NCBI GenBank assembly: GCA_963716205.1
Contig: OY970290.1
Location: 239,417 to 303,416 of the forward strand
Direction: 5' to 3'
DNA length: 64,000 nucleotides
Origin: an uncultured bacterium
GTDB lineage: Bacteria; Patescibacteriota; Minisyncoccia; Phycocordibacterales; GWA1-40-21
The notes under the pieces are model-generated. The model did no database searches, was not told the DNA's origin, and worked only from the letters and a program-made list of their open reading frames with translations. Below, one piece after another: positions 1,230-23,892 of the stretch. Positions within the stretch are counted from its first letter, which is position 1. Each line of letters begins with the position of its first letter. The position numbers and the translations under genes are program-made.

Positions 1230-1302
1230 GGGCCCGTAGTTCATCTGGTAGAACGCCTCATTTGCAATGAGGAGGTAAGCGGTTCGAGTCCGCTCGGGTC
1301 CA
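1230..1302 (+). tRNA. tRNA-Ala (anticodon TGC)
   Basis: 73-nt cloverleaf: acceptor gggcccg/cgggtcc, anticodon loop tttgcaa, T-loop ttcgagt. It has the G3:U70 alanine identity pair. The 3' end is ...ggtccacc. Confidence 0.85.
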
Positions 1303-2563
1303 CCTTAGCAGACTTAAGAGGCAGAAATGCCTCTTTTGTCTTGTAAAGACTGGCTATTTCGGGAGTTCCAAATAAATTATTTTCAAACGTCAACCCTAGA
1401 GGGAATTGGAACCATTGTAATTTAACTTTTGGTCCTATTTTCGCTTTTCGCCATATTTTACTTGGGTTTTTTAGGTATTCTTCGGCAATAGCCAGTGCTT
1501 TCTCAAAATTCATTTCTGTGTTCGGAATGATCGCCAGTGATGCATTTGCCTCACCTAAATCTCTATCAATCATTGCCAATTGTTGCTTTAAAACCGTATC
1601 TGGAATGATACCGTCCAGATTTTTCTTGATAATTCCTGACTGTTTTTCCGTAAGCTCGACAATATATTTTTTTAATCGACTTGCGTCTTTTTGTTGACCC
1701 TCTGTTGCTTTGACCAAGTTATTCTCAATGCATTTTTTTAGCTTTTCAAACTTATTATCATCGAACCGATATTTTTCTAAAAATTTCATAAAATTTTTTT
1801 CAAACTCGTCACGATTGTGATTGGAATCACTCCCACCAAAGCGATAGAAGGGATATTTTTTCAAACGGCCACCTCTGGACCAACTTCCAGTAAGTTTTTT
1901 GCCATTCTCATTTACAACAAATCTGCGGAGAGGGAAGTCTGGGTGATCAGTAATATGTGGTGAATTTTTTCTACCTTTATTTTTAAGTACTGACTGAACC
2001 TGATTAAAGAGCTCTTCAGAAATAATTGGCTCAAACACACCCTTGTGTCTTTCTCCAAATTTAATGATCCATCCAGCATAAAGTTCATTGGTAAGCATCG
2101 TATAGAAATACGATTTGCAAATAGGATTTTGTTTTTTGTTCAAGAGGCCATTTTTTGTTGTCACCATCCTTCTGACAACTTCCGTTGGATAGACACCAGA
2201 AGCAATAAGTTCAAAAGTTCGCTTTACAATTGGACACATCATTTCGTTTGGAGCTATCGTTGCCTTACCGGCCATTTTTACATTATCATATCCGATTGGT
2301 GCCATCCATACATAACGACCATCTCGCATGGCTTCTTTCATGCCACCTGCACAACGTTCAGATCTAATATCGTTATCGAATTGGGCGATATTCGCCATTG
2401 TATTCTCCATAAAGCGACCTACGGGTGTATTCTCAAAATGTTCCGAGGTTGATTTGATCTCAACCCCATAACGTTTCAAAAGAAGGCGAAGTTGACTGTA
2501 GTCGTCCGTGTTTCTGGAAAGACGGTCCAATTTATAAATAATCACTGCCGGAATACAATTCAA
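1241..2563 (-). pseudogene. large serine recombinase, 5'-truncated (catalytic resolvase domain missing); 3' end reads through the tRNA-Ala gene
   Basis: The product aligns with the intact recombinase at 7516..9066 starting from its ..IVYKIDRFSRN region, so about 75 N-terminal residues including the catalytic Ser are absent. The upstream frame holds only repeat-A sequence and a TAA. The C-terminal 21 codons are the reverse complement of the tRNA-Ala(TGC) gene. Confidence 0.7.
1318..1348 (+). terminator. hairpin gaggca-gaaa-tgcctc followed by ttttgtctt (repeat module M2, copy at the native tRNA-Ala)
   Basis: Perfect 6-bp stem with a GAAA loop and a T-run immediately 3' of tRNA-Ala. The same 30-mer recurs at 22626 and 24023. 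Confidence 0.6.
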
Positions 2564-2588
2564 ATCGAGGCGAATGTTCAGGCAGCCA

Positions 2589-2820
2589 GTTCCAATTCGT
2601 CCTCTTGTTTCTCGAAATGATTTCTGAAGTTTTTAATATACAAAAAAATATGGTTCCAATCCTGGAGGATGAGGTCCACAAACACTATTTTAATACCAGT
2701 ATTAAAATAAAGGCTTTAATCATAGATTTTTCAGAATAGAAAAAATTGAAATAGGAAACGACCCAAGCCGACTCGAACCACCAACGATGAAAGTTAGCCG
2801 TATTTTATGTTTTCACTCCT
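2589..2820 (+). repeat. composite repeat copy A (left arm gttccaattcgtcctc..., M1 core ggttccaatcctggaggatgaggtccac at 2652-2679, inverted T-arm-like M3 cgactcgaacc at 2769-2779)
   Basis: Direct sequence similarity to copy B (3664-3754) in the left arm and M1, and to copies C and D in M3. It abuts the truncated recombinase. Confidence 0.75.
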
Positions 2821-2929
2821 ACCATTCAGATCTTCATCAATTTGCGAAAAAAATTAAAAATGTTACCGTTATTAACGGACATAGTTCGTTAATAAAGAAC
2901 ACCGTCCAAATAATTAAAGGAGGTCAACC

Positions 2930-3529
2930 ATGAGCAATCTCATGCTCGATGTTGATCAAGCAGGTGAGTTGAAGGCTGCATTTCGGCGTGAAGGACCGTG
3001 GACGAATGGAGAGATCAAAATGCTCACGGAGCAAAAAGGTTTACTCAGAAAGTTTCGCGAAGTATTACTTGGCCACGCCAAGATTAATTTTCTCGACACG
3101 CTGATTGATTGTGATGCAGATCCTTATCGGCTTTTCGAAAAATGGAAAGTACGAACTCACAAAAAGGGCGGAAGTTGGTCTTTCAATCCCGAGGAGGTAG
3201 AACTTTTTCCAGTAATTAATTTTGGAAATGTTCGTATCAGGGATCTTGCCGATGAATTTGTCAAACTACCGATCCTGAATGCGAATGTTCTTGATCACCT
3301 CATCAAGAGGCCTTATCTGATGCCAGATGAGTGGGAAGGAAAAAGAATCCTGTTTGCCGGAACGATTTATGAGTCTGAGAGATCTTCCAGTCAAGGTTTG
3401 GAGCCAATCATTCGCTTTTTGGAGGTTAAAGGGACTCCGCATTATTTTGGTGGTGATACATTTCGTTCTTTTTACGGCACTCCACTTGAAGTGTATTCAG
3501 AAAATTGTGTTTTGCCGATTAGAAAGTAG
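2930..3529 (+). CDS. hypothetical protein (cassette-like ORF flanked by repeats A and B)
   Basis: 199-aa ORF with a strong SD (aaaggaggtcaaccATG) and a downstream terminator. Confidence 0.6.
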   Translation: MSNLMLDVDQAGELKAAFRREGPWTNGEIKMLTEQKGLLRKFREVLLGHAKINFLDTLIDCDADPYRLFEKWKVRTHKKGGSWSFNPEEVELFPVINFGNVRIRDLADEFVKLPILNANVLDHLIKRPYLMPDEWEGKRILFAGTIYESERSSSQGLEPIIRFLEVKGTPHYFGGDTFRSFYGTPLEVYSENCVLPIRK

Positions 3530-3542
3530 TTTTAGTTTTTAA

Positions 3543-3568
3543 AGGCGCGCTTACCCCGCGCCTTTTTT
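3543..3568 (+). terminator. rho-independent terminator
   Basis: Stem ggcgcg/cgcgcc with a 7-nt loop, followed by tttttt. Confidence 0.65.
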
Positions 3569-3663
3569 ATCCACACAACTTGTCGTTCTCGATAATTTTC
3601 TACCCCTTGGCAAAATATTTTTCAGGAGTAGGATTTATACTGAGACGAATATTTAGGCAACGA

Positions 3664-3754
3664 GTTCCAATTCGTCCTCATGTTTCTCAAAATGATTTCT
3701 AAAGTTTTTGATATACAAAAAAATCTGATTCCAATTCTGTAGGATGAGGTCCAC
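3664..3754 (+). repeat. composite repeat copy B (left arm plus M1 core gattccaattctgtaggatgaggtccac)
   Basis: About 85% identical to copy A over 91 bp. Confidence 0.75.
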
Positions 3755-3781
3755 TCTGGTAGATATTTTGACACAAAAAAA

Positions 3782-3811
3782 CACTCGCGATCATATCGCG
3801 AGTGTTTTTTT
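3782..3811 (+). terminator. hairpin cactcgcgat-cat-atcgcgagtg followed by a T-run
   Basis: 10-bp perfect stem followed by ttttttt. It could also serve the minus-strand small ORF. Confidence 0.6.
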
Positions 3812-3818
3812 GTAAGAT

Positions 3819-6686: not shown

Positions 6687-7286
6687 ATGCGCTCAAAAAT
6701 ATCATTTGCATGGTCGGTGGTGATCATCAGTATCACAGGGGTTATATGTTCCTGGATTATTATTTCTTTTCCAGCACCAAGCAGCAATGATCAGATTGTC
6801 GCACCGATTGCAAATATTATCGTTCCCAAACAAGTCATTGCAGAACTTCCAGCTCGCCTGATTATTCCTGCCATCCATATTAATGCTTTTATTGAATATG
6901 TTGGGCTTACATCGAGCGGCGCAATGGCTGTGCCGCAAGGTCCGAATGATGTCGCATGGTTTGATCTCGGTCCGCGTCCCGGATCAAGCGGAAGCGCGGT
7001 GATCGCGGGGCATGAAGGATGGAAAGACAACATACCGGCAGTATTTGACAGTCTGCATCAACTCAAAGCTGGAGACTTAATCTATATTGAAGATCAAAAG
7101 GGCGCGACCAGCACGTTTGTGGTGCAGAAAACTGAAATTTATGACCAGAACGGAAATTCTTCCACTGTGTTTAATTCAACTGACGGGCTCGCGCATTTGA
7201 ATCTCATTACCTGCGAAGGTGTGTGGAATGCGACGGAACAAAGCTATTCCAATCGAATTGTTGTATTTACTGATAAAGAAAATTAA
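6687..7286 (+). CDS. sortase (transpeptidase)
   Basis: N-terminal TM helix, conserved His (VIAGHEGW), and catalytic LITC motif. It lies directly downstream of its LPXTG substrate. Confidence 0.85.
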   Translation: MRSKISFAWSVVIISITGVICSWIIISFPAPSSNDQIVAPIANIIVPKQVIAELPARLIIPAIHINAFIEYVGLTSSGAMAVPQGPNDVAWFDLGPRPGSSGSAVIAGHEGWKDNIPAVFDSLHQLKAGDLIYIEDQKGATSTFVVQKTEIYDQNGNSSTVFNSTDGLAHLNLITCEGVWNATEQSYSNRIVVFTDKEN

Positions 7287-7504: not shown

Positions 7505-7580
7505 GGGCCGCTAGCTCACTTGGTAGAGCGCTTCCATGGCATGGAAGAGGTAACCGGTTCGATCCCGGTGCGGTCCACCA
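7505..7580 (+). tRNA. tRNA-Ala (anticodon GGC), CCA encoded
   Basis: Acceptor gggccgc/gcggtcc with G3:U70, anticodon loop atggcat, T-loop ttcgatc, and a 3' ACCA. Confidence 0.85.
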
Positions 7581-9066
7581 AAGCCGACGGATTGATCAAA
7601 TATTCCCGATAAACCTCATAAACTGGGCTTAGTTTTGCGGTTCCAAATTTCTCCCCAGAAAATATTATATTTCCATTAAATATCAAGTTTTGGAACCGTA
7701 GTCGCTTTTCAGGTCTTTCATTCAGTCTAAGCCAGGTTTCCGCTGTATTTCTAATGTAGTTAAAGCAGTACTCTAAAGCCTCATCCATATTTAAGCTCTC
7801 GATTTGCTTGTCGAATATTAAAGCTTCTTTCTGAACGATTTTCCGATTAGCAGAATCCTTTTGAGCCAGGAATTCTTCTTTCGTGTAGGTGCCAGATTCA
7901 AAGAGTTCATAAATGTTTTGTCTTCTAATCTCTAGTTCTCCGATTTCTTTTCGTATTTTCCCTTTTAGTTCATCGAATTGCTTGTAATTGTTTTTCCAGA
8001 TATCAACCACGATTGTTTTAAAAGCCTTTTCAAACTGAAACGTTGGATTGATCTCATGTAGATATTCGATGAATAATTGCTCAAACGATTCTTTAGGAAT
8101 GGATTTAGCATAATCGCACTTCTGTTTATGATGGTGATAGTAAGGATATCTGATACCTTTTCGCCCCGTAGAATAGCTGCCGGTAAATGATTGTTCACAG
8201 AATTTGCAGACCGCCAGCTTTCGAAGCGGGAAAGCCGGATTTTTTGCTAAATGTGGCGTGCTTTTGTGTTGTCTTCTTCCCGTTCCCTGGCAGGTGTTGA
8301 AAAGCTTCTCATCAATAATTGGTTCAAACTTTCCCTTTATATCAATGTCCCACACCCGGATAATTCCGCAATAAATTGGATTCTTGATAATCATCTCCAT
8401 GAGTTGTCGTGTAGGAGCGTAGCCATTTCGGGTAGAAAATCCTCGATCCTTCAAGTATTTGGCAAGTGACTTTAAAGTGTGATGGCCCTTAGCAAATTCC
8501 TCAAAAATAAGACGAATATACGGGACATATTTTGGGTCAGGGGTTAGGTTGGCACCCTGGGCCAGGCGATAGTAGCCGAGGGGGGCCGGCCATACCCAAA
8601 TGCCTTTCTTTAAACGCTCCCGCATTCCATTTACACATCTTTCAGTTCGGACGTTGTTATCAAATTCAGCGAATCCCGATAACATAACCTCCATCAGCTT
8701 TCCTGATGGCGTATCGTCTATTTTTTCGGAGACTGAACGAATTTCCGTTCCGTATCCCTGAAGTTTTTGTTTGGTAATCGCGTAATCAGTCTGATTGCGG
8801 GAAAACCGGTCAATCTTGTACACAATAAAGTATTTTATCGTGTTTTTCTTGTTCGAGCAAAAGGCTACTGCCTTTGTGAACTCGGTGCGATCCACAGTTT
8901 TGGCAGACTCTCCACGCTCAATAAATACCTCCGATACGGTTACTCCCTCCCGTACCGCATACTCTTTACACATCCGTTGCTGTGATTCAAGACTCGTACC
9001 ATCTACCTGTTCGAGTGAAGACACCCGACAATAGATTATTCCGTTTTTTGTTTCTCCATTTTGCAC
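7516..9066 (-). CDS. large serine recombinase (integrase), intact; 3' end embedded in tRNA-Ala(GGC)
   Basis: 516 aa with N-terminal IIYCRVSSLEQ (catalytic Ser), a recombinase domain, and a Cys-containing region. The last 21 codons are the antisense of the tRNA-Ala gene. Confidence 0.85.
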   Translation of the reverse strand: MQNGETKNGIIYCRVSSLEQVDGTSLESQQRMCKEYAVREGVTVSEVFIERGESAKTVDRTEFTKAVAFCSNKKNTIKYFIVYKIDRFSRNQTDYAITKQKLQGYGTEIRSVSEKIDDTPSGKLMEVMLSGFAEFDNNVRTERCVNGMRERLKKGIWVWPAPLGYYRLAQGANLTPDPKYVPYIRLIFEEFAKGHHTLKSLAKYLKDRGFSTRNGYAPTRQLMEMIIKNPIYCGIIRVWDIDIKGKFEPIIDEKLFNTCQGTGRRQHKSTPHLAKNPAFPLRKLAVCKFCEQSFTGSYSTGRKGIRYPYYHHHKQKCDYAKSIPKESFEQLFIEYLHEINPTFQFEKAFKTIVVDIWKNNYKQFDELKGKIRKEIGELEIRRQNIYELFESGTYTKEEFLAQKDSANRKIVQKEALIFDKQIESLNMDEALEYCFNYIRNTAETWLRLNERPEKRLRFQNLIFNGNIIFSGEKFGTAKLSPVYEVYREYLINPSALVDRTGIEPVTSSMPWKRSTK

Positions 9067-9263
9067 GGCGGTAATTTTTTCATATCACCATCTACTTGTC
9101 GAGGTACCAAAGGCGACATTTTGGAACCATTTTTCTCTTCTATAAAACAATCAAGCGCCAACTGAGCGTGGGTATAAATGAGATTCCTAATAACCTCCAC
9201 ATCCTCGTCGGGAGCATTTTTTAAAGTCGGCTCAATTTCTCTCATTTGTTCAATGCTAATCAT
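9036..9263 (-). CDS. hypothetical small protein overlapping the integrase start (possible directionality factor)
   Basis: 75-aa acidic ORF overlapping the integrase start by 31 nt. No motif is recognised. Confidence 0.3.
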   Translation of the reverse strand: MISIEQMREIEPTLKNAPDEDVEVIRNLIYTHAQLALDCFIEEKNGSKMSPLVPRQVDGDMKKLPPCKMEKQKTE

Positions 9264-9413
9264 GTTTTCATTTTGATCTTCCTGGAATATAGCGAAAGAC
9301 GGGGAATCTTTCCGTAATCAGCAGGTTGCCGATTTCGGCAACTTTCACCGTCTTCGCGGAATGATTGTCTTCTTTCACAATAGGTGGAGGTCGATTTTTA
9401 TTAAAATCAAAAC

Positions 9414-9731
9414 ATGTTTTATATGAGCACGTTTACAAAACCTTTAAAAAAGGGAAACCGGATTCGGATATGCCGGACGCTCGCGCGCTACACACAAGAG
9501 GAATTGTCATACCTCCTGGGCATTCCGACCACCACGCTTTCAAAATGGGAGAACAGGTCGCAGACTCCCTCGATCCATTATGCCATCGGTCTTTCGGTGG
9601 CACTCCACCGCTTGGTGGACGAAATCTTTTCGGATTATCGGAATGAGTGGGTGAAGATAATTAATCAAAGGGCGCAGATTCTTGAAAATAAAAAGTCGAA
9701 AAAAATTACGAACGATAACGATAAACGATAA
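9414..9731 (+). CDS. XRE-family helix-turn-helix transcriptional regulator
   Basis: The segment RTLARYTQEELSYLLGIPTTTLSKWENRSQTPS is a classic HTH_XRE. It is divergent from the integrase. Confidence 0.7.
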   Translation: MFYMSTFTKPLKKGNRIRICRTLARYTQEELSYLLGIPTTTLSKWENRSQTPSIHYAIGLSVALHRLVDEIFSDYRNEWVKIINQRAQILENKKSKKITNDNDKR

Positions 9732-9888
9732 CGAAAACGTTATGAAAAAAATAAACGTTATTGGCGGCGAATGGCGAACAGCATGGCACTGGGGATTTGC
9801 TATTTGAAAAGTAAGAAACCATGTAAAATATCGCTTTGATCCAGAGCATTCTTTCTATTTTACAAGCACTCAAAGGGAGGATATTTCA

Positions 9889-10107
9889 ATGGCAGTCACT
9901 CTCAAAAAAGAAGTCGTGGTTGATGAATGGTGGATGCTTGTCGAAGGAGCGGCAGACAAGGTTGAACAGGTTTTCAAGGATACCGAGGACAATATAAAAA
10001 AATCTAAGGCTCCCGACGTAACCTTTGAGCGGGTATCTATTCAGTCTCTATTGAACCCCCATGGGAACTCGTGGACGTGGGAGAAGATGAATTTCGGAAT
10101 TACATAG
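9889..10107 (+). CDS. hypothetical protein (possibly the N-terminal part of a frameshifted gene continuing at 10071)
   Basis: 72-aa ORF overlapping the next ORF by 37 nt in another frame. Confidence 0.35.
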   Translation: MAVTLKKEVVVDEWWMLVEGAADKVEQVFKDTEDNIKKSKAPDVTFERVSIQSLLNPHGNSWTWEKMNFGIT

Positions 10108-10880
10108 ACAAAATTCCTTTTGGCGGAAATTACCTTATTGAACGGAAAATCCTGGCTTCGCTTGGAGAGGAAAGACGAAAACAAATCACCAGTGAGATTG
10201 AGCAAAAACGAGAACAAAAGAAATTCACCAAGCCGCCGGAAGTCGAACATATTCCCAAACCTGCTGAAGAACCAAAGCAAGAACCGAAATATGAACCTGT
10301 CCGAGAAAAGACGGGAAAGAAAGAACGGGTATCAGACCTGCCTGTCGAGACTAGTCCGGCACAGACGGAAGAAAAAGGCACGTCACGCCATCAATATCTT
10401 CAAAGTCTCATTAAACGTATGGCCGAGGAAAAGGGATACAAAGCGACCGTCGAGGAATCAATTCCCGATGGTCGGGTTGATGTCGGTCTTCTAAAGAATG
10501 GGAAGAAAATTGCCTGTGAGATTTCCGTGACCAATGCCCCCGATAATGAATTAGGAAATATCGAAAAGTGTCTCAAGGCAGGATACGACAAAGTGCTCAT
10601 GTGTGCCCAGGACAAGAAACATTTGGAAAAGATACGGACCTTGGTTATGGAAAAGCTAACCGACTCCGCTCTTGAAAAAGTAATGTTTGTTGAACCCGAA
10701 GAACTTTTCTTTTATCTGGAAGAAGAAGCGGCCAAGGATTCAGGAAAGGAACAACGGGTTAAAGGCTATAAGGTAAAGGTGAATTACCAACCCTTAAACC
10801 AGGACGACAAGAAAAGGAAACGCGAGGCCGTGGCCCAGGTCATCCTCGGAGCTTTCAAAAGGTTGAAGGGGAAGGATTAG
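10071..10880 (+). CDS. hypothetical protein; C-terminal region weakly PD-(D/E)xK-like (GRVDVGLL...ACEIS)
   Basis: 269-aa ORF with a K/E/P-rich linker then a conserved-looking C-terminal domain. No firm assignment. Confidence 0.45.
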   Translation: MDVGEDEFRNYIDKIPFGGNYLIERKILASLGEERRKQITSEIEQKREQKKFTKPPEVEHIPKPAEEPKQEPKYEPVREKTGKKERVSDLPVETSPAQTEEKGTSRHQYLQSLIKRMAEEKGYKATVEESIPDGRVDVGLLKNGKKIACEISVTNAPDNELGNIEKCLKAGYDKVLMCAQDKKHLEKIRTLVMEKLTDSALEKVMFVEPEELFFYLEEEAAKDSGKEQRVKGYKVKVNYQPLNQDDKKRKREAVAQVILGAFKRLKGKD

Positions 10881-10965
10881 GATTTGGCCGTTTAAGACCT
10901 CGGCAGACTTTTTTAAAATAAAGTTGTGTTAAAATGAATTGCATAAAGATTAAAAGAAGAATCCA

Positions 10966-11568
10966 ATGAAAGATATAAAGTCAGAATCCATTTTAGTAAT
11001 GAAAATCGGCTACCATGGAGCCGAAGATATTGACACTATTATTGCGAGAAAAAAAGAAGAAGAAAAAAAATGCGGTCAAACCTATTGGGGTTATGGCGGG
11101 GTATTATGCCACCCAATCCGAGTTGTCCAAAATTTTGCATCGCAAGTCGGAACGAAAAAAATCAAAGTTCTTTTCAGTGTTACCAAATCCCCATTCCAAT
11201 CTGATCCGACGCGAGCAAAATATTTTTCCGAGGACGGAAAAACATGGTCACCATTACATGACAGCGCCAATGTTCTGGCATCAAAATTTGCAATAGTTCT
11301 TCGTTCTCTCAAAGCATGTAAAAAGACAATAGTTCTTAACGATTATTGTGTCCCAATAGGTCCTTCAAAGGGGCGTCCCCTTAACGAATATCTAAGATTT
11401 CGTGTTGATAAAGCGGTCGGAACATTATCGAACAAAAAGAACCTGGGTCCCCTTAAGAGTCTTCCGATCCAGTTTGAGGCTGATTTGGTCCCGCCTTACG
11501 CCATCTTGGTGAGTCACCAGCATCAACCTGAGTCCCATCATCCATCACAAATTTCCCTTCCTTATTGA
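10966..11568 (+). CDS. hypothetical protein
   Basis: 200-aa ORF whose 3' end overlaps the convergent recombinase fusion by 116 nt. Confidence 0.4.
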   Translation: MKDIKSESILVMKIGYHGAEDIDTIIARKKEEEKKCGQTYWGYGGVLCHPIRVVQNFASQVGTKKIKVLFSVTKSPFQSDPTRAKYFSEDGKTWSPLHDSANVLASKFAIVLRSLKACKKTIVLNDYCVPIGPSKGRPLNEYLRFRVDKAVGTLSNKKNLGPLKSLPIQFEADLVPPYAILVSHQHQPESHHPSQISLPY

Positions 11569-13984
11569 TATAAGCTGGAATTTTCCTGTCTTTGCTCCCA
11601 TAGAATTTAGGCATTGCATCATCTTTTATTTTTTGGCCCTCAAAAGGAGCCGGACAATTATAGACACGATCTAAAACAAGATTTGCCGACCGTAAACTAG
11701 GTCGGTCTTCGAGATGATATTGATGAATTTCACGAATCATTTCAGAAACTACATACCCGTGCTTGCATAAAAATTCTTGAATGTTCGCCATTGCTTCTCT
11801 ACTCCAATCTTCCTTATGAGCAAAAGGCAAAATAGCCATTCCCCAACTTGGAGCTGGTTTGCAAAATTCCATGCAACGTCCTAGAAATAGTTTCCCGCAT
11901 TCGCCCTTGTCAACTGATCCATAAGGAGGGTTCGTGTAGAACACTTCATGAGCGCCTTTATATTTTTCAGGGATTGGATCTCGAACATTGTAGCGATGAA
12001 CCGAAATAAGATCGGGAGGAAGGCGCAAGTCGTCGATTACTTGTTCAATAAATGCTAAAAGCCTTTCATCAAAATCGAAAATACGAATTTTGGCCGGTCC
12101 TTTGAAAACATCTCGATTAGCAAGATGCGCAATAACCAAACCCATACAATCGCCATCACCAACAAATGCAACGTCTCTGTATTTCAGATAATCAATTGCT
12201 AAAAGTGCCTGAGTTGCTTGGCTTCCGGGAAGCATAAAGACTTGATCTATTGAACGGATTGGACGTGGTCTATCTGGATGTTGCGTGACCTGTGCAACTA
12301 AATCCACAATAGCCGCATCAGGCCTCACCCCCAGGCTGAGAGCCACGTCTTTTTGCCACAGCCTCAGGTCAAGGCGGCGCTTTCGGATATGGTCCCCAAG
12401 GGTTGTTAGGCTCTTAGGGTAGGCAGGATTTTGTGGTTTTTTGGCCGATAATTGAAAGTTAATGAATGGCAACGCAGGAATGAGGTTGTGTTGCTTTTCA
12501 TTAGTCAATTCAGCGGTCGAGGGAATATAGGCGAGGGATATGGAAATATCATCCGAGCCTATAGTGATCCTATCGGTGATATTCTCGATGATCCGCCGTT
12601 TTTCTTCGAAAACCAGTTCTTTCCATTTGGAATAAAGGTCTTTGGCCTCGGATATGATCTCGTCACTTGAGAGGTATTTGATCTTGAGGAAGTCTATCTC
12701 TCCCTGAAGGTCCGGGAGCTGGGCCTTGACCTTCTCCAAGCGCTCTTCATTTTCCCGGAATTCGGTTCCAAAGGTCTTCACGCTGATCTCGTCGTTGTAA
12801 TAGGCTTTTTTTATCTTGTCCATTTGGCTTTCGATTTTGGCACGCTCTTTCTCAAGCCGCTCTAAGAGTTCCTGCTTTTCCTGAATGACCATATCGGCCC
12901 GTTCAAGGTGCTTGGAAATCTCAACCGGGGAAAAGAAGAAGTTTTTTAATTGTTCATGGAATATGGATTCAAGATCATCCGGGAGTATCTTGTTCCTGCA
13001 TTTGGCACAGGTATATTTCGACGCATTCGGCGGTATGGGCATCTTGCCCCCGCAGTGACAAAAGACGAAGCCGGTGAAAAGATGTGTTGGCCTTTTGGCG
13101 GGTTTCTTACGTTTCGATTCCTGTTCCCTTAAGATAGCGTTGCACTGATCCCACAATTCAGCAGAAACAATGGGCTCTACCTCGACATATTCCCATTCCG
13201 CTTTGGGCTTCATCACCCATGCTTTGCCGTCGCCCAGGCTCTTCGTGTAATTGAGCCGGTGCTTTCCTTTGGCCGTGGGGTCTTGGAGAAGACGGTCAAC
13301 AGTGGTATCGGAAAACTTTGAGCCTTTGCGCGTCCGATATCCCTTGTCATTGAGAATCCGGGCAACAGTTTTCTTGCGGTGATGTTCAAGGAAATATTCA
13401 AAGATGAGTTTTGCAATGGGAACCTCTTTGGGTTCAGGGATGAGTTGTTTGTCTTTCCAGCGATAACCGAAAGGAGCCTGACCGCCAAGGGGTTTGCCGA
13501 GCTTTGCCCGGATGGGGACAGAGGCGGCCACCCGCGAAGCGATTTCTTCCCGTTCCCATTGGGCCATGGCCGCGATCATGGTGTAGAAGAGACGACCAGC
13601 AGGGGTTGAAGTATCGATGGATTCTTGGAGGGAAATTAAATCGGCGTCACTCTCATTGAAGAGGTCGGCGAAATCTAAAAGCTCTCTAGTGTTTCGGGCA
13701 AGGCGAGCAAGTTTCGAGAAGATGAGTCCTGTGATATGGCCGGACTTAATATGCCCAAGCATCTTTTGAGCTTCCGGGTGGGCAATGACTGCTTTGCCGC
13801 TTACTGCCTCTAAGTGATAGACCTCTTTGACATTCCAACCCTTCGACTCTGCATAATACCGCGCCCGTTTCTCATGGTGTTCAGGGCTTTCCCCCCGCGC
13901 CTGATCTTCCGTTGAAACACGAATCCAAATACCGACGTTTTTCTTTCCTTGGTTTTTTTCCACGAGCGCACCTCCACAAATCAA
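11453..13984 (-). CDS. large serine recombinase fused to a C-terminal HTH plus DUF43/BpsA-like SAM-dependent transferase (methyltransferase-like) domain
   Basis: 843 aa with N-terminal IWIRVSTEDQ (catalytic Ser), a recombinase domain, a Cys cluster CHCGG..CAKC, and a coiled coil. After about residue 500 it continues with LGDHIRKRRLDLRLWQKDVALSLGV (HTH-like), VAFVGDGDCMGL (GDGD), and VFYTNPPYG (NPPY). Confidence 0.8.
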   Translation of the reverse strand: MICGGALVEKNQGKKNVGIWIRVSTEDQARGESPEHHEKRARYYAESKGWNVKEVYHLEAVSGKAVIAHPEAQKMLGHIKSGHITGLIFSKLARLARNTRELLDFADLFNESDADLISLQESIDTSTPAGRLFYTMIAAMAQWEREEIASRVAASVPIRAKLGKPLGGQAPFGYRWKDKQLIPEPKEVPIAKLIFEYFLEHHRKKTVARILNDKGYRTRKGSKFSDTTVDRLLQDPTAKGKHRLNYTKSLGDGKAWVMKPKAEWEYVEVEPIVSAELWDQCNAILREQESKRKKPAKRPTHLFTGFVFCHCGGKMPIPPNASKYTCAKCRNKILPDDLESIFHEQLKNFFFSPVEISKHLERADMVIQEKQELLERLEKERAKIESQMDKIKKAYYNDEISVKTFGTEFRENEERLEKVKAQLPDLQGEIDFLKIKYLSSDEIISEAKDLYSKWKELVFEEKRRIIENITDRITIGSDDISISLAYIPSTAELTNEKQHNLIPALPFINFQLSAKKPQNPAYPKSLTTLGDHIRKRRLDLRLWQKDVALSLGVRPDAAIVDLVAQVTQHPDRPRPIRSIDQVFMLPGSQATQALLAIDYLKYRDVAFVGDGDCMGLVIAHLANRDVFKGPAKIRIFDFDERLLAFIEQVIDDLRLPPDLISVHRYNVRDPIPEKYKGAHEVFYTNPPYGSVDKGECGKLFLGRCMEFCKPAPSWGMAILPFAHKEDWSREAMANIQEFLCKHGYVVSEMIREIHQYHLEDRPSLRSANLVLDRVYNCPAPFEGQKIKDDAMPKFYGSKDRKIPAYINKEGKFVMDDGTQVDAGDSPRWRKAGPNQPQTGSEDS

Positions 13985-14038
13985 TCAAACTTTTTGGTGA
14001 ATATGAATAGGATTAAATTGTATACGATTGTATACCTG

Positions 14039-14374
14039 CTAAGCCGTATCCTCAAGATCAAATATAGTATCGGCACTAAACGGTTTCGACGTATTTCCGT
14101 CGATCATCAGTTTGAGATATATGCCATACGCGGGAAGGTTCACGATATCACTTTGCCGGAAGACCGGCCAGAATTCATCAGAGAGCATCTTGGCATCTTC
14201 CGTTCCCACCCTAAACGAGATCATGGTTCCCACATTTCCCAAGATGGCCCTTCGAATATGTTCATCGACTTGATGAAGGTATTGGTTGACGAGGATCAGG
14301 TTCAAGCGGTATTTGCGCGCCTCTGAAAGAATATCTATAAACCCGGAAGTGGTGAAGCTTTGAAACTCGTCCAC
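14039..14374 (-). pseudogene. C-terminal fragment of a VirD4/TraG-type conjugative coupling protein
   Basis: Residues ...YVDEFQSF..EARKYRLNLILVNQYLHQV..AILGNVGTMISFRVGTEDAKMLSDEF match the C-terminal region of T4SS coupling ATPases (ILVNQ). The frame stays open upstream of the annotated Met, but no N-terminal ATPase or TM part is present. Confidence 0.5.
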
Positions 14375-14447
14375 ATAAAGATAGAAGTCCCGTCGTTTTT
14401 CTTCCGGTATCTATCATCCGCTCAAGGGAACATCCGCCGGAAATATC

Positions 14448-14879
14448 GTGGATACGCTCACCCAGTTCATCACCGGGAAAGGCTACAGCGTCCGCGTCGG
14501 CATGACCCCTTCTGAAGATATCTACGGCTATGTCAATGACAAGAAGGAGATCGTGCTCAAGGAGGGCGAGAGTTCCGACCATCAAGCTTTGGTTCTAGCT
14601 CATGAAATGTCGCACGCCCTTCTCGGTCATGTCGGTTCTTTCCAGAATCAAGCGGAGAAGGAACTTGAAGCCGAAACGTCTGCCTGGATCATTTGCCGCA
14701 ATCTCGGATTGCGGACTAATGAAACAAGTTTTGCTTACTTGGCAACATGGGCAAGCGGGCCGGAACAAGAAAAGAAGTTGGAAAAGGCCGCTTCTCGTGC
14801 CTGTCAGGTGGCGCAACTAATTTTGGAAGGTCTGGAAGCAATGAAGCAGATTTCCAGCCAGAAAGGAGAAATGGTATGA
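14448..14879 (+). CDS. HExxH metallopeptidase-like protein (ImmA/IrrE- or ArdC-C-terminal-like)
   Basis: LVLAHEMSHALLGH motif. GTG start. Its stop overlaps the next start (ATGA). Confidence 0.5.
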   Translation: MDTLTQFITGKGYSVRVGMTPSEDIYGYVNDKKEIVLKEGESSDHQALVLAHEMSHALLGHVGSFQNQAEKELEAETSAWIICRNLGLRTNETSFAYLATWASGPEQEKKLEKAASRACQVAQLILEGLEAMKQISSQKGEMV

Positions 14880-15145
14880 AAAAACTCGTCATCATCATCG
14901 ACGATGGAATGGTTGAGGACGTGCTCATCAGTTCCAAGGAACCGATGGACATTATGATCGTGGACTTTGACAAGAAGACCCTCGATCAATCGGCCTTGCA
15001 TGAACTGAGCGAACCGCACAACTTTGAAGACGTGGCCGCATTAGCCGATATCTACAAGTGGGATGCCTTCTACGATCCCAAACGGGTCAAGGAGGTCTTT
15101 GCAACACAAGAGCCGAAACACGCCTTTAATCCCAGCACTTCATAG
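14876..15145 (+). CDS. hypothetical protein
   Basis: 89-aa ORF with an SD (aggag) 9 nt upstream and translational coupling to the upstream gene. A strong terminator follows. Confidence 0.5.
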   Translation: MKKLVIIIDDGMVEDVLISSKEPMDIMIVDFDKKTLDQSALHELSEPHNFEDVAALADIYKWDAFYDPKRVKEVFATQEPKHAFNPSTS

Positions 15146-15164
15146 GAATTCCAATTCCTAGCAA

Positions 15165-15198
15165 AGCCCTATCGACAATCGATAGGGCTTTTTTTTTA
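15165..15198 (+). terminator. rho-independent terminator
   Basis: Hairpin agccctatcga-caa-tcgatagggct followed by ttttttttt. Confidence 0.8.
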
Positions 15199-15294
15199 CT
15201 TATCTCTGATTTTTTATTTTATAGAAATTCTGTTATAGTTAATCCGTAGTTGTGTCCGAGTTGGTTTGAAATCCCAAGTCAAGAAACTCCAAAT

Positions 15295-16317
15295 ATGAAA
15301 AATTATTTTTATTACAAAGATAAAAAAAAAGTCCTACCTGTTTTAGGTGAGGAAAAAAATAAACTGGCAAAAAAGAAACTCGACCACATTCTTAAGACCA
15401 AAAAGGAATTAATACCAGAACACTTTATCGAAAGGTGGTCAGAGGTGGCATTGTATAATCCTGGCGGTGATGTTGAAAAAGCAAATGCCATTTTGATCAA
15501 TCCGGAAGACGGCGCTTACGATCTATCGAACCCACTCAACGACATGACAGGAAAAGAATGGGTAAAGTTCAGTTGCAGTTGGTTTATTTTTAATGCTCTG
15601 CACAAAGACTTAAAGGAAGAGAGAGAAGTATCTCCAAATACTCAGGATCATCCAGCGACATTTTCTCCGACAATGATTGAGGGGTTTGTGAAATTCTTTA
15701 CAAAAAAGGGAGAAAACGTACTCGATCCTTTTTGCGGCATTGGAAGCACTATGGTTGCCTGCAAACGAACCGGAAGAGTCGGCTATGGTATTGAGCTTAA
15801 TAAAAAATATTATGATCTGTCGCTCAAGCGAACTCCGGAATTCAAAAAGACCATATTCAACGAAAATGCGGCCAATATCAAAAAACTGAATCTGCCAAAG
15901 ATTGCTTTTTCGATTTCATCGCCTCCGTACTGGGACATGCTTAACCGAAGTACCAAAGACTTCAAAAAGGATAGAACGAAAGACGGTTTCGATGTTAACT
16001 ATTCCGAAGCCGAAGAGGACTTGGGTAATATTGATAACTACGATCTGTTTTTGGAAAAATTAGCAAATATATATTTTGACATATTTGATCTACTCAAAGC
16101 CGGAGGGTATCTCGTGGTCATTGTGAAGAACCTTAAGAAAGAGGGTAAAATGTATCCATTGGCGTGGGACTTGGCTCGGCTTCTCTCGAAGAAGTATATG
16201 CTCAAAGATGAGAAGCTTTGGATACAAGACAAAGTCGGTCTTGCCCCCTACGGATACCCTTCAGCGTGGGCAAGCAACATACTGCATCATTACTGTTTAG
16301 TTTTTCAAAAGAAATAA
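15295..16317 (+). CDS. DNA methyltransferase (N4-cytosine/N6-adenine family, SPPY motif IV)
   Basis: Motif X/I HPATFSP..VLDPFCGIGST is followed by motif IV SISSPPYW. It overlaps or abuts the next MTase. Confidence 0.8.
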   Translation: MKNYFYYKDKKKVLPVLGEEKNKLAKKKLDHILKTKKELIPEHFIERWSEVALYNPGGDVEKANAILINPEDGAYDLSNPLNDMTGKEWVKFSCSWFIFNALHKDLKEEREVSPNTQDHPATFSPTMIEGFVKFFTKKGENVLDPFCGIGSTMVACKRTGRVGYGIELNKKYYDLSLKRTPEFKKTIFNENAANIKKLNLPKIAFSISSPPYWDMLNRSTKDFKKDRTKDGFDVNYSEAEEDLGNIDNYDLFLEKLANIYFDIFDLLKAGGYLVVIVKNLKKEGKMYPLAWDLARLLSKKYMLKDEKLWIQDKVGLAPYGYPSAWASNILHHYCLVFQKK

Positions 16318-16318
16318 C

Positions 16319-17947
16319 ATGTCTTTAACCATTTCACAAATTGTAAAAAACCTTGTCGATGTAAACGATATCAAACACGATCGGCAGTATTCGCGCGTGG
16401 CGAAACTTCATAAATATTGGTCAAGAAAACCTTGGTTTGTTATCGATCAATACATTGAGAAATATTCCAAAAAGGATCACGTCGTTTTGGACCCGTTTTG
16501 TGGTAGCGGAATTATTGGACTGCAATCAGTTTTAGCCAATAGAAATTTCATCGGTTACGACCTGAATCCTTTCGCTGTCTTTCTCGCAAAGAACTCTTTG
16601 CAGGTCGGTTATGACAACGCCTCTTTTGAAGAGGACTTCTCAGCGATTGAGCGGGCTGTTCGGGAGGAAATAATGCCTCTCTATGCGACCAAAGACAAAT
16701 ATATTCTGTATACCATTCTTGGAAAGAAAAATAGTAAGGACTATAACGCTGTCATCGCTGACAGTAATTTCCACAACAAGCAAAAAGTTAGTCTCTCTCA
16801 AGAATATCTAAATCCAATCATAAAATTTCCTAAGAACTTGAAGTATCCAGACAAGGACTTTCCAGAGAAATTTTATAAAGATCGTTTTTCTTATAAGGGT
16901 GTGAAGCGAGTGTCAGACATGTTCACCAAGAGGAACCTTCTTGCTTTGGCAACACTTCATATGGCTATCAACAAATTGCCTCTAAAAAACAGAGATTTGT
17001 TCATGCTTGCATTTACGAACACCCTATTGCATGTAAGTAAATTAAAAGCAGAAAATGTGCGGCCTCTTGGTGTAAATAACTTTTGGATTCCGGATGATTT
17101 TATTGAAGAGAATGTCTGGTGGAGGTTTGTAGACCGAGTCAATAATGTAAAAATGGCAAAGGAAGTTATTGCAGACAAGGCTTCCCGAAACGAGGTCTCG
17201 AAGCCTGTCTCTAAGATTTATAACAAGTCGTCTTTGAAGATGATTGAAATTAAGCCGGGTAGTGTTGACTATTTGATTACCGATCCTCCATACGGCGACA
17301 CCATCCAATACTCAGAGCTTTCATACATCTGGAATTGCTGGCTTGAGAAAGAGTTTGAGATTGAGAATGAAGTCATTATAAACCCTGTGCAAAAAAAGGG
17401 AGTGAACGAATACTACGATCAGCTCGCTACTTTTATCCGCGAAGCGAAAAGGGTTCTCAAAAAAGACGCTTACTTTACACTTGCATTCCACAACAAGGAT
17501 TTGAAAATTTGGATTAGCCTTGCCGAATTAATAAGAGATCATGGAATGGAATTGGTAGACATCTCTTCCTACGACACCTTCGGCAGTCCTTACAATAAAA
17601 ATTGGGCAAAATTTTCGCCCAAATCTGACTTCTATGTGACCTTTATAAATTCGAAAAATAAAGCAAGGGTTAAAAATAAAAAAGTTATCTATCCCAATGA
17701 TATTGCAGATGAGATCGTCAAATGCCTTGGCAAAAACAATGGCAAACTTTTTAATCTGAATAAGGCGTATGATCTGTTCGTAAGCGTAGTTATAAGTAAA
17801 ATATTTGATGGGTCGCAAGTCATTGAACACGAACGACTAAGTATTGAGAACATTATGAATCTTTTTCAGAACGTTCCACGAGATGAGAAGCATGGTAAGA
17901 AAAAGGAAACTGTTCAGATAAGTTTATTTGAACTACAACATGTTTAA
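16319..17947 (+). CDS. DNA methyltransferase (N6-adenine type, DPPY motif IV)
   Basis: N-terminal HKYWSRKP..VLDPFCGSGIIG (motif X/I) and LITDPPYGD (motif IV). 542 aa. Confidence 0.8.
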   Translation: MSLTISQIVKNLVDVNDIKHDRQYSRVAKLHKYWSRKPWFVIDQYIEKYSKKDHVVLDPFCGSGIIGLQSVLANRNFIGYDLNPFAVFLAKNSLQVGYDNASFEEDFSAIERAVREEIMPLYATKDKYILYTILGKKNSKDYNAVIADSNFHNKQKVSLSQEYLNPIIKFPKNLKYPDKDFPEKFYKDRFSYKGVKRVSDMFTKRNLLALATLHMAINKLPLKNRDLFMLAFTNTLLHVSKLKAENVRPLGVNNFWIPDDFIEENVWWRFVDRVNNVKMAKEVIADKASRNEVSKPVSKIYNKSSLKMIEIKPGSVDYLITDPPYGDTIQYSELSYIWNCWLEKEFEIENEVIINPVQKKGVNEYYDQLATFIREAKRVLKKDAYFTLAFHNKDLKIWISLAELIRDHGMELVDISSYDTFGSPYNKNWAKFSPKSDFYVTFINSKNKARVKNKKVIYPNDIADEIVKCLGKNNGKLFNLNKAYDLFVSVVISKIFDGSQVIEHERLSIENIMNLFQNVPRDEKHGKKKETVQISLFELQHV

Positions 17948-19034
17948 TCATATGGAAATATACAAAAAAGATTTTTTTAACATATTCAAAGCCAACTTTG
18001 ATTTCAAGATTGTTGAAACTGAAATGGGGCTGGCAGTCAAAATGCCCGCAAAGGAAGCTTTTATTTACAGCAGTATTACCGGTGCCGGGTACTTTGAAAA
18101 TCCAATCTATCCTTTTACCCCAAAAGGTCTGATGAAGCTTTTCTATAATGCATTCACCTATAAGTTCGTATCAGGTATTTTTGATAACGGTGTCCTCAAA
18201 AATACGCCGTACATTCTGTCGAAAGCAAAGAAGTATTTGTTTGAGGGCGATAAATATGTTGTCCCTATTGAATTTGAATCAGAAGAAAAATTGATCAATC
18301 TGCTCAAGGAAAAGTTTGATCATATTAAAAACCCAGAAAATTACATTATTCAGCGCATTGAGACAAGCAAGCAAGGCAACGGAATGGAACCATTCATGGA
18401 ATACCTTGCAGGCGAGTCTTTCCGACATCTTGGCTTCATTGTAGAGAATCAAATACCTCTTGCCCATGCAGTCGGCTCTCCGGATTTTGCTGGGTACGGT
18501 TTAAGTGACCTCATAATCAAGATAAGCGATTACGGATACCTATCAAGCGCCGGTTTTCACATGATTGAGTTGGCTCTCATTAGAAACTTTAAACAAGGGC
18601 CAAAGAACGAGAGTCACCATGTCACTCACGACTTTATTGTCGGTGAAGCAAAGACTGGGAGTCTGATCATGACCAAACAGTTGGAAAAATATCTCAATAC
18701 CGGACTATTTGATCAGGGATTTGAGATTCACCCTGCAAAGGCCAAGCCCTCAAAAGATTACTTCGGTTTGATCAGTTTGGATTCTGATTTCAAAATAAAA
18801 ATCACTCTCCCTGTAACTAAGCATACGGCGGAGAATCCGCTGTCACGGGAAGAGTATGCGATATGGCTTGGTAACTACATTAAGTTTTATCTAATTTCAA
18901 ATTTCACAAACGATGAGCTTAAGCAATTTTACATTGAACAGGAAGGTGAAGAGATAAATAAAGAGTCTGATCTTGTTAGTTTCGTCTTGGGGTTGGAGAC
19001 TGAAACAATTCTAGCAAAAATTAAATCCCTATAA
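17928..19034 (+). CDS. hypothetical protein, candidate PD-(D/E)xK nuclease (possible restriction component)
   Basis: 368 aa. E..SPDFAGYG...IVGEAKTG resembles the E/PD/ExK triad. It overlaps the MTase stop by 20 nt. Confidence 0.5.
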   Translation: MNYNMFNHMEIYKKDFFNIFKANFDFKIVETEMGLAVKMPAKEAFIYSSITGAGYFENPIYPFTPKGLMKLFYNAFTYKFVSGIFDNGVLKNTPYILSKAKKYLFEGDKYVVPIEFESEEKLINLLKEKFDHIKNPENYIIQRIETSKQGNGMEPFMEYLAGESFRHLGFIVENQIPLAHAVGSPDFAGYGLSDLIIKISDYGYLSSAGFHMIELALIRNFKQGPKNESHHVTHDFIVGEAKTGSLIMTKQLEKYLNTGLFDQGFEIHPAKAKPSKDYFGLISLDSDFKIKITLPVTKHTAENPLSREEYAIWLGNYIKFYLISNFTNDELKQFYIEQEGEEINKESDLVSFVLGLETETILAKIKSL

Positions 19035-19035
19035 T

Positions 19036-20049
19036 ATGGCATACTCCAGCGACGAAATTATTAAAAGAGAGATTCTAGATACCCTTGGTTATGAAACCAA
19101 TGGGATTAAACTTCGCATCTTTCCACAAAGCAGTAACGAAGATCAAAAGCCATTTTCAGAGGGCGGTCTTACTTTTGGGTTTAAAGGTGTTTCTTATGGT
19201 TCGTGTGATGCCGCATGGTATGTGGACGAAAAATGGGTAGACGGATTGAATGGCAAAGAAATAAACAAAAAGCCAGTGATTGCACTCGAAGGTACTGATG
19301 CTTTAAGTAGGAACTCGGCAGGCAATGCTCTCTATCAGCGATTTCATCATGCACTCGGTGGGGTAAAAAACGGCATCATTGGTGTTTATTATTTGAAAAA
19401 AGGCACTCAAAAAATCCAGCCAGACCTCTACGGCATGGCCTACTTTGCATCTAAGGTGGAAAAAGGAAAATATCTAATCACAGATGATCTCTCCGTCGTT
19501 AAGGATTTGCTGGATCGCTATCACAAACCCGCAGAATTTTCTGCTTACGTCAAAGCTTATTTGGAAAAGATGCACAAGATTTTTATAACTAAATTCAATG
19601 CCGCCTATGGTGGAGATTGGAAAAGGTTTGCAGAGCATCGATCGACAATCATACAAAACGACTACGTTATTAAATATGCTGGCCGAATGAGAAGAAATTT
19701 CACTGACGGATCACAGCGTGCAGGGCATATTGCTGTCGGTGAGATGTTTCTTACCAAATACTATTTTTACGATAAAATGTTTTACTATCTTTTTCCGAAA
19801 ATGACACATAATGATTTGGAGGTTCTTGATCACAATAAAACCACGGACAAAGAGTGGTTCCTTTTGCGAAATGAGCCTAACGTTGAAATAAAGACTATGG
19901 ACGATATTGCCGGACTTAGTCAGTCAACCCGAGAAGCGCTTTTGAGTATCCAAGATACCCCTCTCAAGGGAGAGGCTATGCGCACTTTTAATAAATGCAT
20001 GAAAACCATTGTCGAGGGATTTAAGTCTGGCAAGTTGAAGCTGAAATAA
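19036..20049 (+). CDS. hypothetical protein (operon partner)
   Basis: 337-aa ORF tightly packed between neighbours. No motif is recognised. Confidence 0.5.
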   Translation: MAYSSDEIIKREILDTLGYETNGIKLRIFPQSSNEDQKPFSEGGLTFGFKGVSYGSCDAAWYVDEKWVDGLNGKEINKKPVIALEGTDALSRNSAGNALYQRFHHALGGVKNGIIGVYYLKKGTQKIQPDLYGMAYFASKVEKGKYLITDDLSVVKDLLDRYHKPAEFSAYVKAYLEKMHKIFITKFNAAYGGDWKRFAEHRSTIIQNDYVIKYAGRMRRNFTDGSQRAGHIAVGEMFLTKYYFYDKMFYYLFPKMTHNDLEVLDHNKTTDKEWFLLRNEPNVEIKTMDDIAGLSQSTREALLSIQDTPLKGEAMRTFNKCMKTIVEGFKSGKLKLK

Positions 20050-20072
20050 TTGTAAAGTTAGTACGAAATCCT

Positions 20073-22451: not shown

Positions 22452-22496
22452 TAATGGCCTTAGACTGTCACACTTTTGGAGCGGCGTTTACACATC

Positions 22497-23881: not shown

Positions 23882-23892
23882 AACATAATGAT

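Follow-up and report, generated by a model that had tools for sequence, protein, structure and literature searches.

A truncated serine integrase gene ending in the antisense of tRNA-Ala points to a clade of large serine recombinases with the recombination site probably inside their own gene

Introduction

Why would the gene of a serine integrase end inside a tRNA gene, read from the opposite strand? The question is raised by a stretch of 64,000 nt (the window) from an uncultured bacterium (Patescibacteriota; Minisyncoccia; Phycocordibacterales; GWA1-40-21; assembly GCA_963716205.1, contig OY970290.1, positions 239,417-303,416 of the forward strand). At window positions 1230-2700, the feature studied here, the N-terminally truncated gene of a large serine recombinase (LSR), int1, runs into the host gene for tRNA-Ala(TGC); a full-length gene, int2, ends in the antisense of tRNA-Ala(GGC) further along (coordinates in Table 1). 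With a probability of about 85%, we read 1230-2700 as the attL of a decayed element in the 3' end of tRNA-Ala(TGC), whose integrase belongs to an LSR clade carrying the attP core within the integrase open reading frame (ORF).

The end of int1 is encoded by the tRNA gene

The tRNA genes were called with ARAGORN and the Rfam tRNA model, and cloverleaf and hairpins were assessed by RNA folding. An initial annotation of this stretch had proposed that the recombinase frame stays open through a hairpin and into tRNA-Ala(TGC), and both the tRNA call and the overlap were borne out. The tRNA folds as a cloverleaf and has the G3:U70 pair and the discriminator A73. The last 20 codons of int1, VDPSGLEPLTSSLQMRRSTR, and its stop codon (1241-1303) are the antisense of this tRNA, the stop TGA being the antisense of a TCA in the D-loop. 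Where the frame enters the tRNA it reads GTGGAC, the Val-Asp codons, which are the antisense of GTCCAC within the heptamer GGTCCAC (the core).

The initial annotation had also held that the catalytic N-terminal domain, about 75 residues, is missing, and the domain analysis agrees. Only positions 66-145 of the Pfam Resolvase profile are matched in int1, and the catalytic serine is gone; the domain is present in int2 (profile positions 2-144, motif YCRVSS) and in full-length homologues. The Recombinase domain PF07508 is found at residues 111-195 (E 1.6e-08). Aligned with the 516-aa int2 product, int1 matches from residue 75 of the latter to the end at 30% identity. In all, some 66-80 N-terminal residues, including the catalytic serine, are missing. 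The first 100 residues of each of the five closest full-length homologues were compared with the window by tblastn at E values up to 10, and no catalytic domain was found upstream of int1 in any frame: homologue residues 1 to about 80 match only 9057-8782, and the sequence from 2560 downward is matched only from residue 67-81. The zinc-ribbon profile PF13408 matches the int2 product and has no match in int1; the family consensus has no cysteines there, and the close int1 family may possess a zinc-less variant of this domain. Since the nucleophile is lost, int1 cannot catalyse recombination. It is thus best described as a truncated derivative of an LSR and not as a functional member, a predicted inactive relic in what would be a fossil module.

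A probable recombination site within the coding region across the family

A protein search with the truncated ORF retrieved 801 homologues at E < 1e-10, and tails were classed in the best 120. The few source names given are mostly Nomurabacteria, Pacebacteria/Paceibacterota and Parcubacteria, that is, Patescibacteria. An antisense-tRNA-Ala tail of the form VD[PR]xG[LFI]EPxT..ST[RNS] closes 72 of the 120, and most of the others bear a different tail starting right after VD, for example VDFGAQFWNSFAKECEYLIEILRESEHQ; the two alternative C-termini diverge exactly after Val-Asp. A metagenome scan with the family alignment gave 80 loci, and the 3' end could be read in 65 of them. In 41 of these 65, ARAGORN calls a tRNA gene on the opposite strand in which the integrase ORF stops or through which it passes, and several further loci show tRNA-type tails at contig ends. 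The tRNA targets include Ala(TGC), Ala(GGC), Ala(CGC), Glu(TTC/CTC), Lys, Arg and Gln, and the pattern extends down to 32% identity. Because homologue tails and metagenome loci share it, we take the arrangement to be a property of the whole LSR clade, as predicted from its sequences, and not of the window locus alone. In distant relatives (L049, L052, L073-L092, L104 and L105; 32-38% identity), mostly from soil or sediment, the integrases end in antisense tRNA-Glu, Lys, Arg or Gln, and in L086 the core is GGTCAC; members of the clade seem to have changed targets often.

The second tail class accounts for the other state of the site. In the attP-form loci L003, L041 and L067, the integrase reads through the core into the alternative tail. 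Six loci contain complete elements, with the tRNA/integrase 3' junction at one end and, 5.7-8.4 kb away, the element-side arm (P-type, or X), the core and a flank at the other; this far flank is clearly a terminator hairpin in L048 and L063. The tails detached at the far ends (attR) are intact ORFs of 24-47 codons, and excision would therefore restore the long integrase. Two tail classes that split at the core, together with detached tails at attR, are what integrases with attP inside their own ORF should present, and they uphold the initial annotation's expectation of an attP within the 3' end of the integrase gene.

It could be argued that the overlap is a coincidence of gene packing, an integrase that happens to have no stop codon before the tRNA, with no recombination site in the ORF. 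Simple arithmetic with a stop frequency of 3/64 gives a chance of about 0.36 that an antisense frame stays open over 21 codons, which is not significant for a single copy. The overlap gains its weight because it recurs across the family and not from single-copy odds: junction, frame and Val-Asp boundary are repeated in the homologues and loci counted above and at five tRNA identities, the alternative tails start exactly at the core and lie detached at the other end of the elements, and relatives carry the tRNA without the integrase. Coincidence is accordingly extremely improbable.

In an alignment of seven att-type sites, GGTCCAC is the sole invariant block. It occurs nine times in the window, always on the plus strand and always in an att-like context, where 2.5 ± 1.4 copies would be expected on both strands. 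Because it is the only sequence common to all sites, the crossover would lie within this heptamer, at the extreme 3' end of the tRNA. The initial annotation had named the 3' half of the tRNA as the recombination partner; the 3' end stands, and the shared segment shrinks to the core. For the same reason, the tRNA-encoded peptide would derive from host DNA and not from a tRNA half borne by the element. The 3' part of tRNA-Ala(TGC) is thus identified as the putative B-type (host-side) arm of the attachment site.

The arms have a regular geometry. In tRNA arms the T-loop motif GTTCGA starts 16 nt before GTCCAC (n = 33 sites), and in the X-type arms of the elements GTTCCA starts 21 nt before it (n = 17 sites). 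According to a rule reportedly described by Rutherford and colleagues in 2013, the distal motif of an LSR attP always lies 5 bp further out than that of attB, and the agreement of the GTTC(G/C)A spacing with this rule supports the attP/attB assignment. The offset is seen here in the left arms only; the right host arm is not conserved, and inspection of the right-hand host flanks of empty and attR sites revealed no conservation.

An AlphaFold2 (AF2) model of the attP-form homologue P0046 (mean predicted local distance difference test, pLDDT, of 81) has the LSR layout, with a coiled coil or long helical hairpin at residues 344-420 and beta-hairpins. The core-encoded residues form a low-confidence linker, and the alternative tail is a helix (residues 499-522, block pLDDT 82-84 over 501-520). 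Foldseek matched the model to the SPbeta, Bxb1, phiC31 and LI integrases with E values of 1e-18 to 1e-10, and 514 columns were aligned to SPbeta.

A small ORF that overlaps the integrase start, 66-90 aa long, is conserved among family loci (motif LDYLASILVEAFLDKKEYERKQ) and is missing beside the truncated int1. The copy at int2 gave no BLAST match and resembles the others by eye only. It is a candidate directionality factor (RDF) or regulator. VirD4, TraG, ArdC and RadC genes surround the attP-form integrases of L003 and L005. The L005 integrase (10001-11527) has a mutated core, GCGCAC, and a tail VRL..; no tRNA lies within 10 kb of it on its contig of 205 kb, and it may be an immobilised or conjugative relative. 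In complete elements at other loci, the cargo includes a KAP NTPase and an AAA_15 ATPase and is defence-like.

Decay of the module at tRNA-Ala(TGC)

What took the place of the missing N-terminus of int1 is repeat copy A, as the initial annotation had suggested. This copy, 85% identical to 3625-3754, abuts the truncated start, and its minus strand encodes at 2578-2679 a detached alternative tail, VDLILQDWNHIFLYIKNFRNHFEKQEDELELAA. The verdict of a decayed integration module also holds, because repeat A is a P-type arm with a remnant of that tail. A deletion would have removed the catalytic domain together with all cargo, joining codon ~75 to the arm. Beyond it lie a second decayed unit and repeat copy B, which is likely the attR of the tRNA-Ala(TGC) array. 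From the succession of an X arm and a terminator with a 19-bp stem, we infer that the array ends on the right at 3748; the terminator is probably the displaced native terminator of the tRNA (B' side).

Both the tail of L085, an int2-type relative, and that of L041, an int1-type relative, are similar to the P-type repeats, whose assignment to one integrase lineage was dropped as ambiguous. Four of the five detached tails in the window (minus-strand 2578-2679, 3653-3754, 22495-22611 and 23892-24008) end in -LAA, -LVA, -SVA or -SAA. An ssrA-like degron was considered and dropped, since tails at other loci do not end so.

Inverted, decayed copies of a tRNA-Ala 3' end (T-arm and acceptor) were noted in the second decayed unit and at 22728-22758 and 24125-24155. 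Each of the three is found some 85-125 nt right of an att-type core and immediately precedes a lone plus-strand ORF; the inverted copy is 81% complementary to 1275-1300, and the fragment at 2782-2757 is terminator-like on the minus strand.

Truncation need not mean loss of function, and int1 might be a domesticated, catalytically dead DNA-binding protein that acts at the tRNA-Ala junction, for instance by blocking integration or excision. It would retain the recombinase, zinc-ribbon-like and coiled-coil domains. Its 440-codon frame is fully open, and the ddl-tRNA-Ala(TGC) site in L001/L002 is occupied by a second copy that also lacks its N-terminus, keeps ~389 codons open and has a slightly different break point. 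The second copy is 68% identical to int1, however, and the full-length homologue P0002 74%. Because full-length genes are closer to int1, the two truncations are separate events, and a shared ancestral truncation (domestication) was rejected. Independent and recent truncations leave open frames without any need for selection, truncated copies are uncommon (~4 of the best 120 homologues), and no promoter or start signal stands out. We therefore regard domestication as very unlikely and an inactive relic as the better description of int1.

Relatives without the integrase and the hairpin beside the tRNA

Relatives carrying tRNA-Ala(TGC) without the integrase, which the initial annotation had proposed to look for, were found by a protein search with ddl and contig look-ups. 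In L116 and L117, whose Ddl is 78% and 76% identical to that of the window, respectively, the backbone comprises ddl, tRNA-Ala(TGC), tRNA-Val with tRNA-Ala(GGC), tRNA-Ala(CGC), tRNA-Pro and yknX/macB-like genes, and no integrase is present in it. The only close ddl match in the contig scan, L006, has no tRNA after ddl and was unusable as an empty-site reference. These backbones bear on whether the tRNA could be cargo brought by an element rather than its host target. Mobile elements and phages sometimes carry tRNA genes, and three tRNA-Ala genes lie within 25 kb here. The same three, with tRNA-Val and tRNA-Pro, nevertheless stand in the matching integrase-less backbone, the attP-form loci L003 and L005 have no tRNA, and left of their core only the short GTTCCA motif is tRNA-like. 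A cargo origin thus deserves hardly any credence, and the tRNA is taken as the host target.

In L117, unrelated sequence follows the core at tRNA-Ala(TGC). In L116, a piece of ~40 nt after the tRNA (7084-7125; CGTAGAGTACTTAGATGCCGAAATGGCATTTTT) matches the integrase 3' end and hairpin; we read it as a scar that a former element left behind, seemingly kept as the terminator of the tRNA.

The hairpin itself was placed by the initial annotation at 1318-1348; its presence holds and those coordinates were approximate (Table 1). Hairpin and TTTTG were flagged as terminator-like on the plus strand, that of the tRNA, and are coded within the integrase codons ..KTKEAFLPL... In 15 of 20 family members, strong hairpins with U-runs occur within the 42 nt that follow the core, with a mean z score of -3.3 from per-sequence folding against mononucleotide shuffles only. 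The stems vary among members (GAGGCA/UGCCUC, GACGC/GCGUC, CCGG/CCGG), and the protein motifs encoded over them vary with the stem (EAFLPL as against DAFSAS/DAISAS). The hairpin inside the coding region is probably a replacement terminator for a tRNA whose own terminator the element displaces.

The integrase has conserved FGT codons at ~1363-1371, some 60 nt right of the core, and these yield GGTTCCAAA, a P-arm motif in direct orientation. It recurs at the matching offset in 20 family loci and may be a coding coincidence or an accessory binding site.

A second array at tRNA-Ala(GGC)

The int2 gene ends in the same manner, with the antisense-tRNA tail VDRTGIEPVTSSMPWKRSTK, and heads a larger array. 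By blastn, nothing in L116 corresponds to 7582-25426, in place of which that relative has 390 nt, confirming an island of 17.8 kb. The contexts of the nine cores in the window fall into four kinds: tRNA followed by an integrase 3' end (1297, 7572), arm X followed by an integrase 3' stub (22605, 24002), arm X followed by unrelated sequence or a terminator (2673, 3748, 25381, 25414) and tRNA followed by its own terminator (25532). They fit the expected attL, attP-type, attR and empty attB junctions, respectively, as far as junction sequences can tell. At the attP-type junctions, the minus-strand frame leaves the integrase stub, crosses GTG GAC (Val-Asp) and continues in arm X, coding for example VDLILRNWNQIYESIKAFQEFHDSVDIPDFPEKEKSAA.

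Table 1. Features at the two tRNA-Ala arrays, in window coordinates unless a locus is named.
Feature	Position	Strand	Remarks
tRNA-Ala(TGC), host gene	1230-1302	+	Rfam 67.1 bits; ARAGORN 1230-1304; cloverleaf fold; follows ddl also in integrase-less L116 and L117
int1, N-terminally truncated LSR	1241-2563	-	440 codons, open frame
Core GGTCCAC	1297-1303	+	acceptor end, discriminator A and first C; minus strand reads ..V-D
Hairpin	1316-1335 (8-bp stem, GAAA loop); 1309-1344 (extended stem)	+	then TTTTG; inside the integrase 3' coding region
Repeat copy A, P-type (element-side) arm	2550-2679	+	abuts truncated int1 start; core 2673-2679; GTTCCA 21 nt from core
Second decayed unit	2680-3747	+	inverted tRNA-Ala-like 3' fragment 2757-2787; ORF of unknown function 2930-3529 (+) and its terminator
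Repeat copy B, P-type arm and core	3625-3754	+	core 3748-3754; tail remnant 3653-3754 (-)
Terminator with 19-bp stem	3773-3813	+	just right of copy B; attR flanks at other loci are likewise terminator hairpins
tRNA-Ala(GGC), second occupied target	7505-7577	+	core 7572-7578; ARAGORN, Rfam
int2, full-length LSR	7516-9066	-	516 aa; Resolvase, Recombinase, Zn-ribbon; last 20 codons antisense to tRNA-Ala(GGC)
Small ORF overlapping the integrase start	9036-9263	-
Small ORF, other loci	L003 4389-4616; L005 9751-10023; L038 9805-10053; L048 9787-9987
Island absent from L116	7582-25426		int2 element (defence-type cargo and third LSR), two one-ORF units, stubs
attP-type junction between units	22494-22695	+	P-type arm, core 22605-22611 and integrase 3' remnant with hairpin
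Second attP-type junction	23891-24092	+	core 24002-24008; minus strand has 38 integrase codons in frame into the alternative tail
Right end of the GGC array	25323-25420	+	P-type arm and core 25381-25387, then 7-codon arm stub and core 25414-25420
tRNA-Ala(CGC), unoccupied attB-like site	25467-25537	+	core 25532-25538; own terminator directly after

Within the island lies a third LSR (11453-13984, minus strand, 843 aa), which is fused at its C-terminus to a domain like BpsA_C, that of branched-chain polyamine synthase (Pfam E 1.8e-24); no tRNA overlaps the 3' end of this LSR gene. The cargo at 15250-22451 includes, by Pfam, a 792-aa AAA_13 ATPase and two ORFs without a match, and two large ORFs in 15250-17947 are DNA methyltransferase-like by eye; taken together, this cargo resembles a cluster for restriction or defence.

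Three units of 1.1-1.4 kb (2680-3747, 22612-24001 and 24009-25380) contain exactly one intact ORF each, on the plus strand, of 199, 341 and 348 aa, the last with a weak PKD match. Two of them share a 260-nt junction module (78% identity), an integrase break point and an inverted tRNA-like fragment. Such units might be integrase-less mini-elements or cassettes mobilised in trans, making up a serine-recombinase cassette array. We think this unlikely: they are seen in one window only, ordinary decay is found elsewhere (an internally deleted integrase in L001, a bare scar in L116), local duplication or recombination in the array would explain the shared module, and no free circular form is known. 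Integron membership was rejected, since there is no tyrosine recombinase in the region and the junctions are P-arm, core and integrase 3' stubs instead of attC-like palindromes; one ORF per unit is the sole likeness. Apart from the arrays, a 282-nt unit occurs in the window seven times in succession, head to tail and with 100% identity (33840-35831).

Discussion

The evidence from tails, cores and junctions suggests the following course of events. The attP core (GTCCAC, Val-Asp) would lie ~25-45 codons before the integrase stop, and in the free (attP) form the ORF would run on into the other end of the element, which codes for the C-terminal helix. Recombination with the acceptor end of a tRNA would leave the helix tail at the far end of the element, as attR, and the integrated form of the integrase would read backwards through the tRNA gene to the stop in the D-loop. 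The tRNA would be kept intact, with the hairpin in the integrase coding sequence replacing its terminator. As the right host arm seems unconstrained, we infer that the arrays of the window arose from repeated integration next to the tRNA.

Several points weigh against this interpretation. Tandem arrays conflict with the canonical rule that LSRs recombine only attP with attB, and they could instead stem from homologous recombination. The recombination is a prediction from sequence, and the crossover is bounded only to 7 bp. The P-type repeats of the window match the L085 tail at least as well as they match the tails of the closest int1 relatives, and repeat A may perhaps not be the own arm of int1. 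The hairpin is missing in five of the 20 family members and in int2. RNAalifold gave no consensus in the fixed-column covariation test, with pair counts no better than in shuffles; that test failed because stem register and loop length shift between members, and it was replaced by the z scores given above. Selection on the tail at the protein level is only weakly indicated: non-synonymous changes are below synonymous ones (pN < pS) in 10 of 12 tail pairs, all short comparisons, and the conserved WN residues of the tail are partly the DNA arm motif TGGAAC.

Exchanging the tail may affect directionality or stability. A bolder combined reading takes the tail exchange as a built-in switch and the occupied tRNA-Ala as a landing pad on which elements accumulate serially, the pad persisting because the host-side right arm is unconstrained; we offer it tentatively and think it rather less probable than its negation. 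If the switch were real, the helix-tailed free form would integrate, and the antisense-tRNA-tailed prophage form would excise, be degraded or be autoinhibited, so that direction would be controlled without an RDF, or in addition to it. If the landing pad were real, tRNA-Ala genes of Patescibacteria would collect small defence-carrying elements and one-gene units, and truncated integrases would possibly be site-blocking proteins.

How does this compare with known systems? Canonical phage serine integrases have, to our knowledge, attP outside the int ORF, and target protein genes or intergenic sites. The family resembles the phiC31, Bxb1, A118/LI and SPbeta (SprA) integrases in fold, domain order and short att sites with a 5-bp offset. 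The archaeal SSV1-type (type I) integrases are tyrosine recombinases with attP in the int ORF and a tRNA target, and their gene is partitioned on integration. There integration leaves two large gene parts, neither of them functional, whereas the LSR of the window family keeps all its folded domains; domains and fold are those of serine recombinases, and tyrosine recombinase chemistry is absent. Likewise, an Islander-type island, with a displaced tRNA fragment of tens of bp and a tyrosine integrase, does not describe the locus, where only GGTCCAC is shared and the integrase is of the serine type.

In certain mycobacteriophages, attP reportedly lies inside the repressor gene, so that integration by a tyrosine integrase alters the C-terminus and behaviour of the repressor, as Broussard and colleagues are said to have found in 2013. 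In that integration-dependent immunity the altered gene is the repressor; in the window family it is the integrase, and the C-terminal change is read from sequence alone. The phage phiRSM of Ralstonia has a small enzyme that targets a tRNA gene, a resolvase-like serine recombinase which reportedly mediates both integration and excision. Tycheposons of Prochlorococcus build islands from tandem arrays with partial tRNAs and degraded integrases, and 27 of 937 tycheposon-type elements carry an LSR. Both resemble the window family in inserting at tRNA genes, some by serine recombinases. Tycheposons, however, rely mostly on tyrosine recombinases and leave a partial tRNA duplicated, whereas the shared sequence here is only 7 bp, and the sources describe no intragenic attP or tail swap.

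The closest, partial precedent is the SPbeta-like Bacillus phage Goe14, whose integrase is an LSR with attP in its own C-terminal coding region (bioRxiv 10.1101/2021.11.22.469490). Its integration into the protein gene spoVK, over a 3-bp AAG core, alters the integrase C-terminus with a loss of 131 residues, and the authors, speculating on a regulatory role, assign integration to the long form and excision to the short one (bioRxiv 10.1101/2021.11.22.469490). Both are LSRs with an intragenic attP. In contrast to Goe14, the window family targets tRNA 3' ends and preserves the tRNA, exchanges ~25-45 residues for ~12-20 antisense-tRNA codons, and has conserved the arrangement across a large clade. 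No description of this LSR clade was found in the literature searched, whose coverage was limited; the window integrases apparently belong to a large and so far undescribed LSR group with the recombination site inside its own gene.

The int1 copy, being inactive, matters only as a pointer to this family. In genome annotation, an ORF that continues into an antisense tRNA gene should be left at full length and not treated as an artefact; junctions of this kind show exactly where an island begins or ends. Serine integrases are major tools of genome engineering, and the short sites of the family, whose layout can be deduced from sequence (tRNA T-arm and acceptor arm, 7-bp core, P arm), would offer many candidate orthogonal integrase/att pairs with a conserved tRNA gene as attB. 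The tRNA-targeting clade has hundreds of members, in the poorly understood Patescibacteria and beyond. With attP inside int, its layout would provide two natural isoforms of one serine integrase, and the proposed RDF-independent directionality becomes testable.

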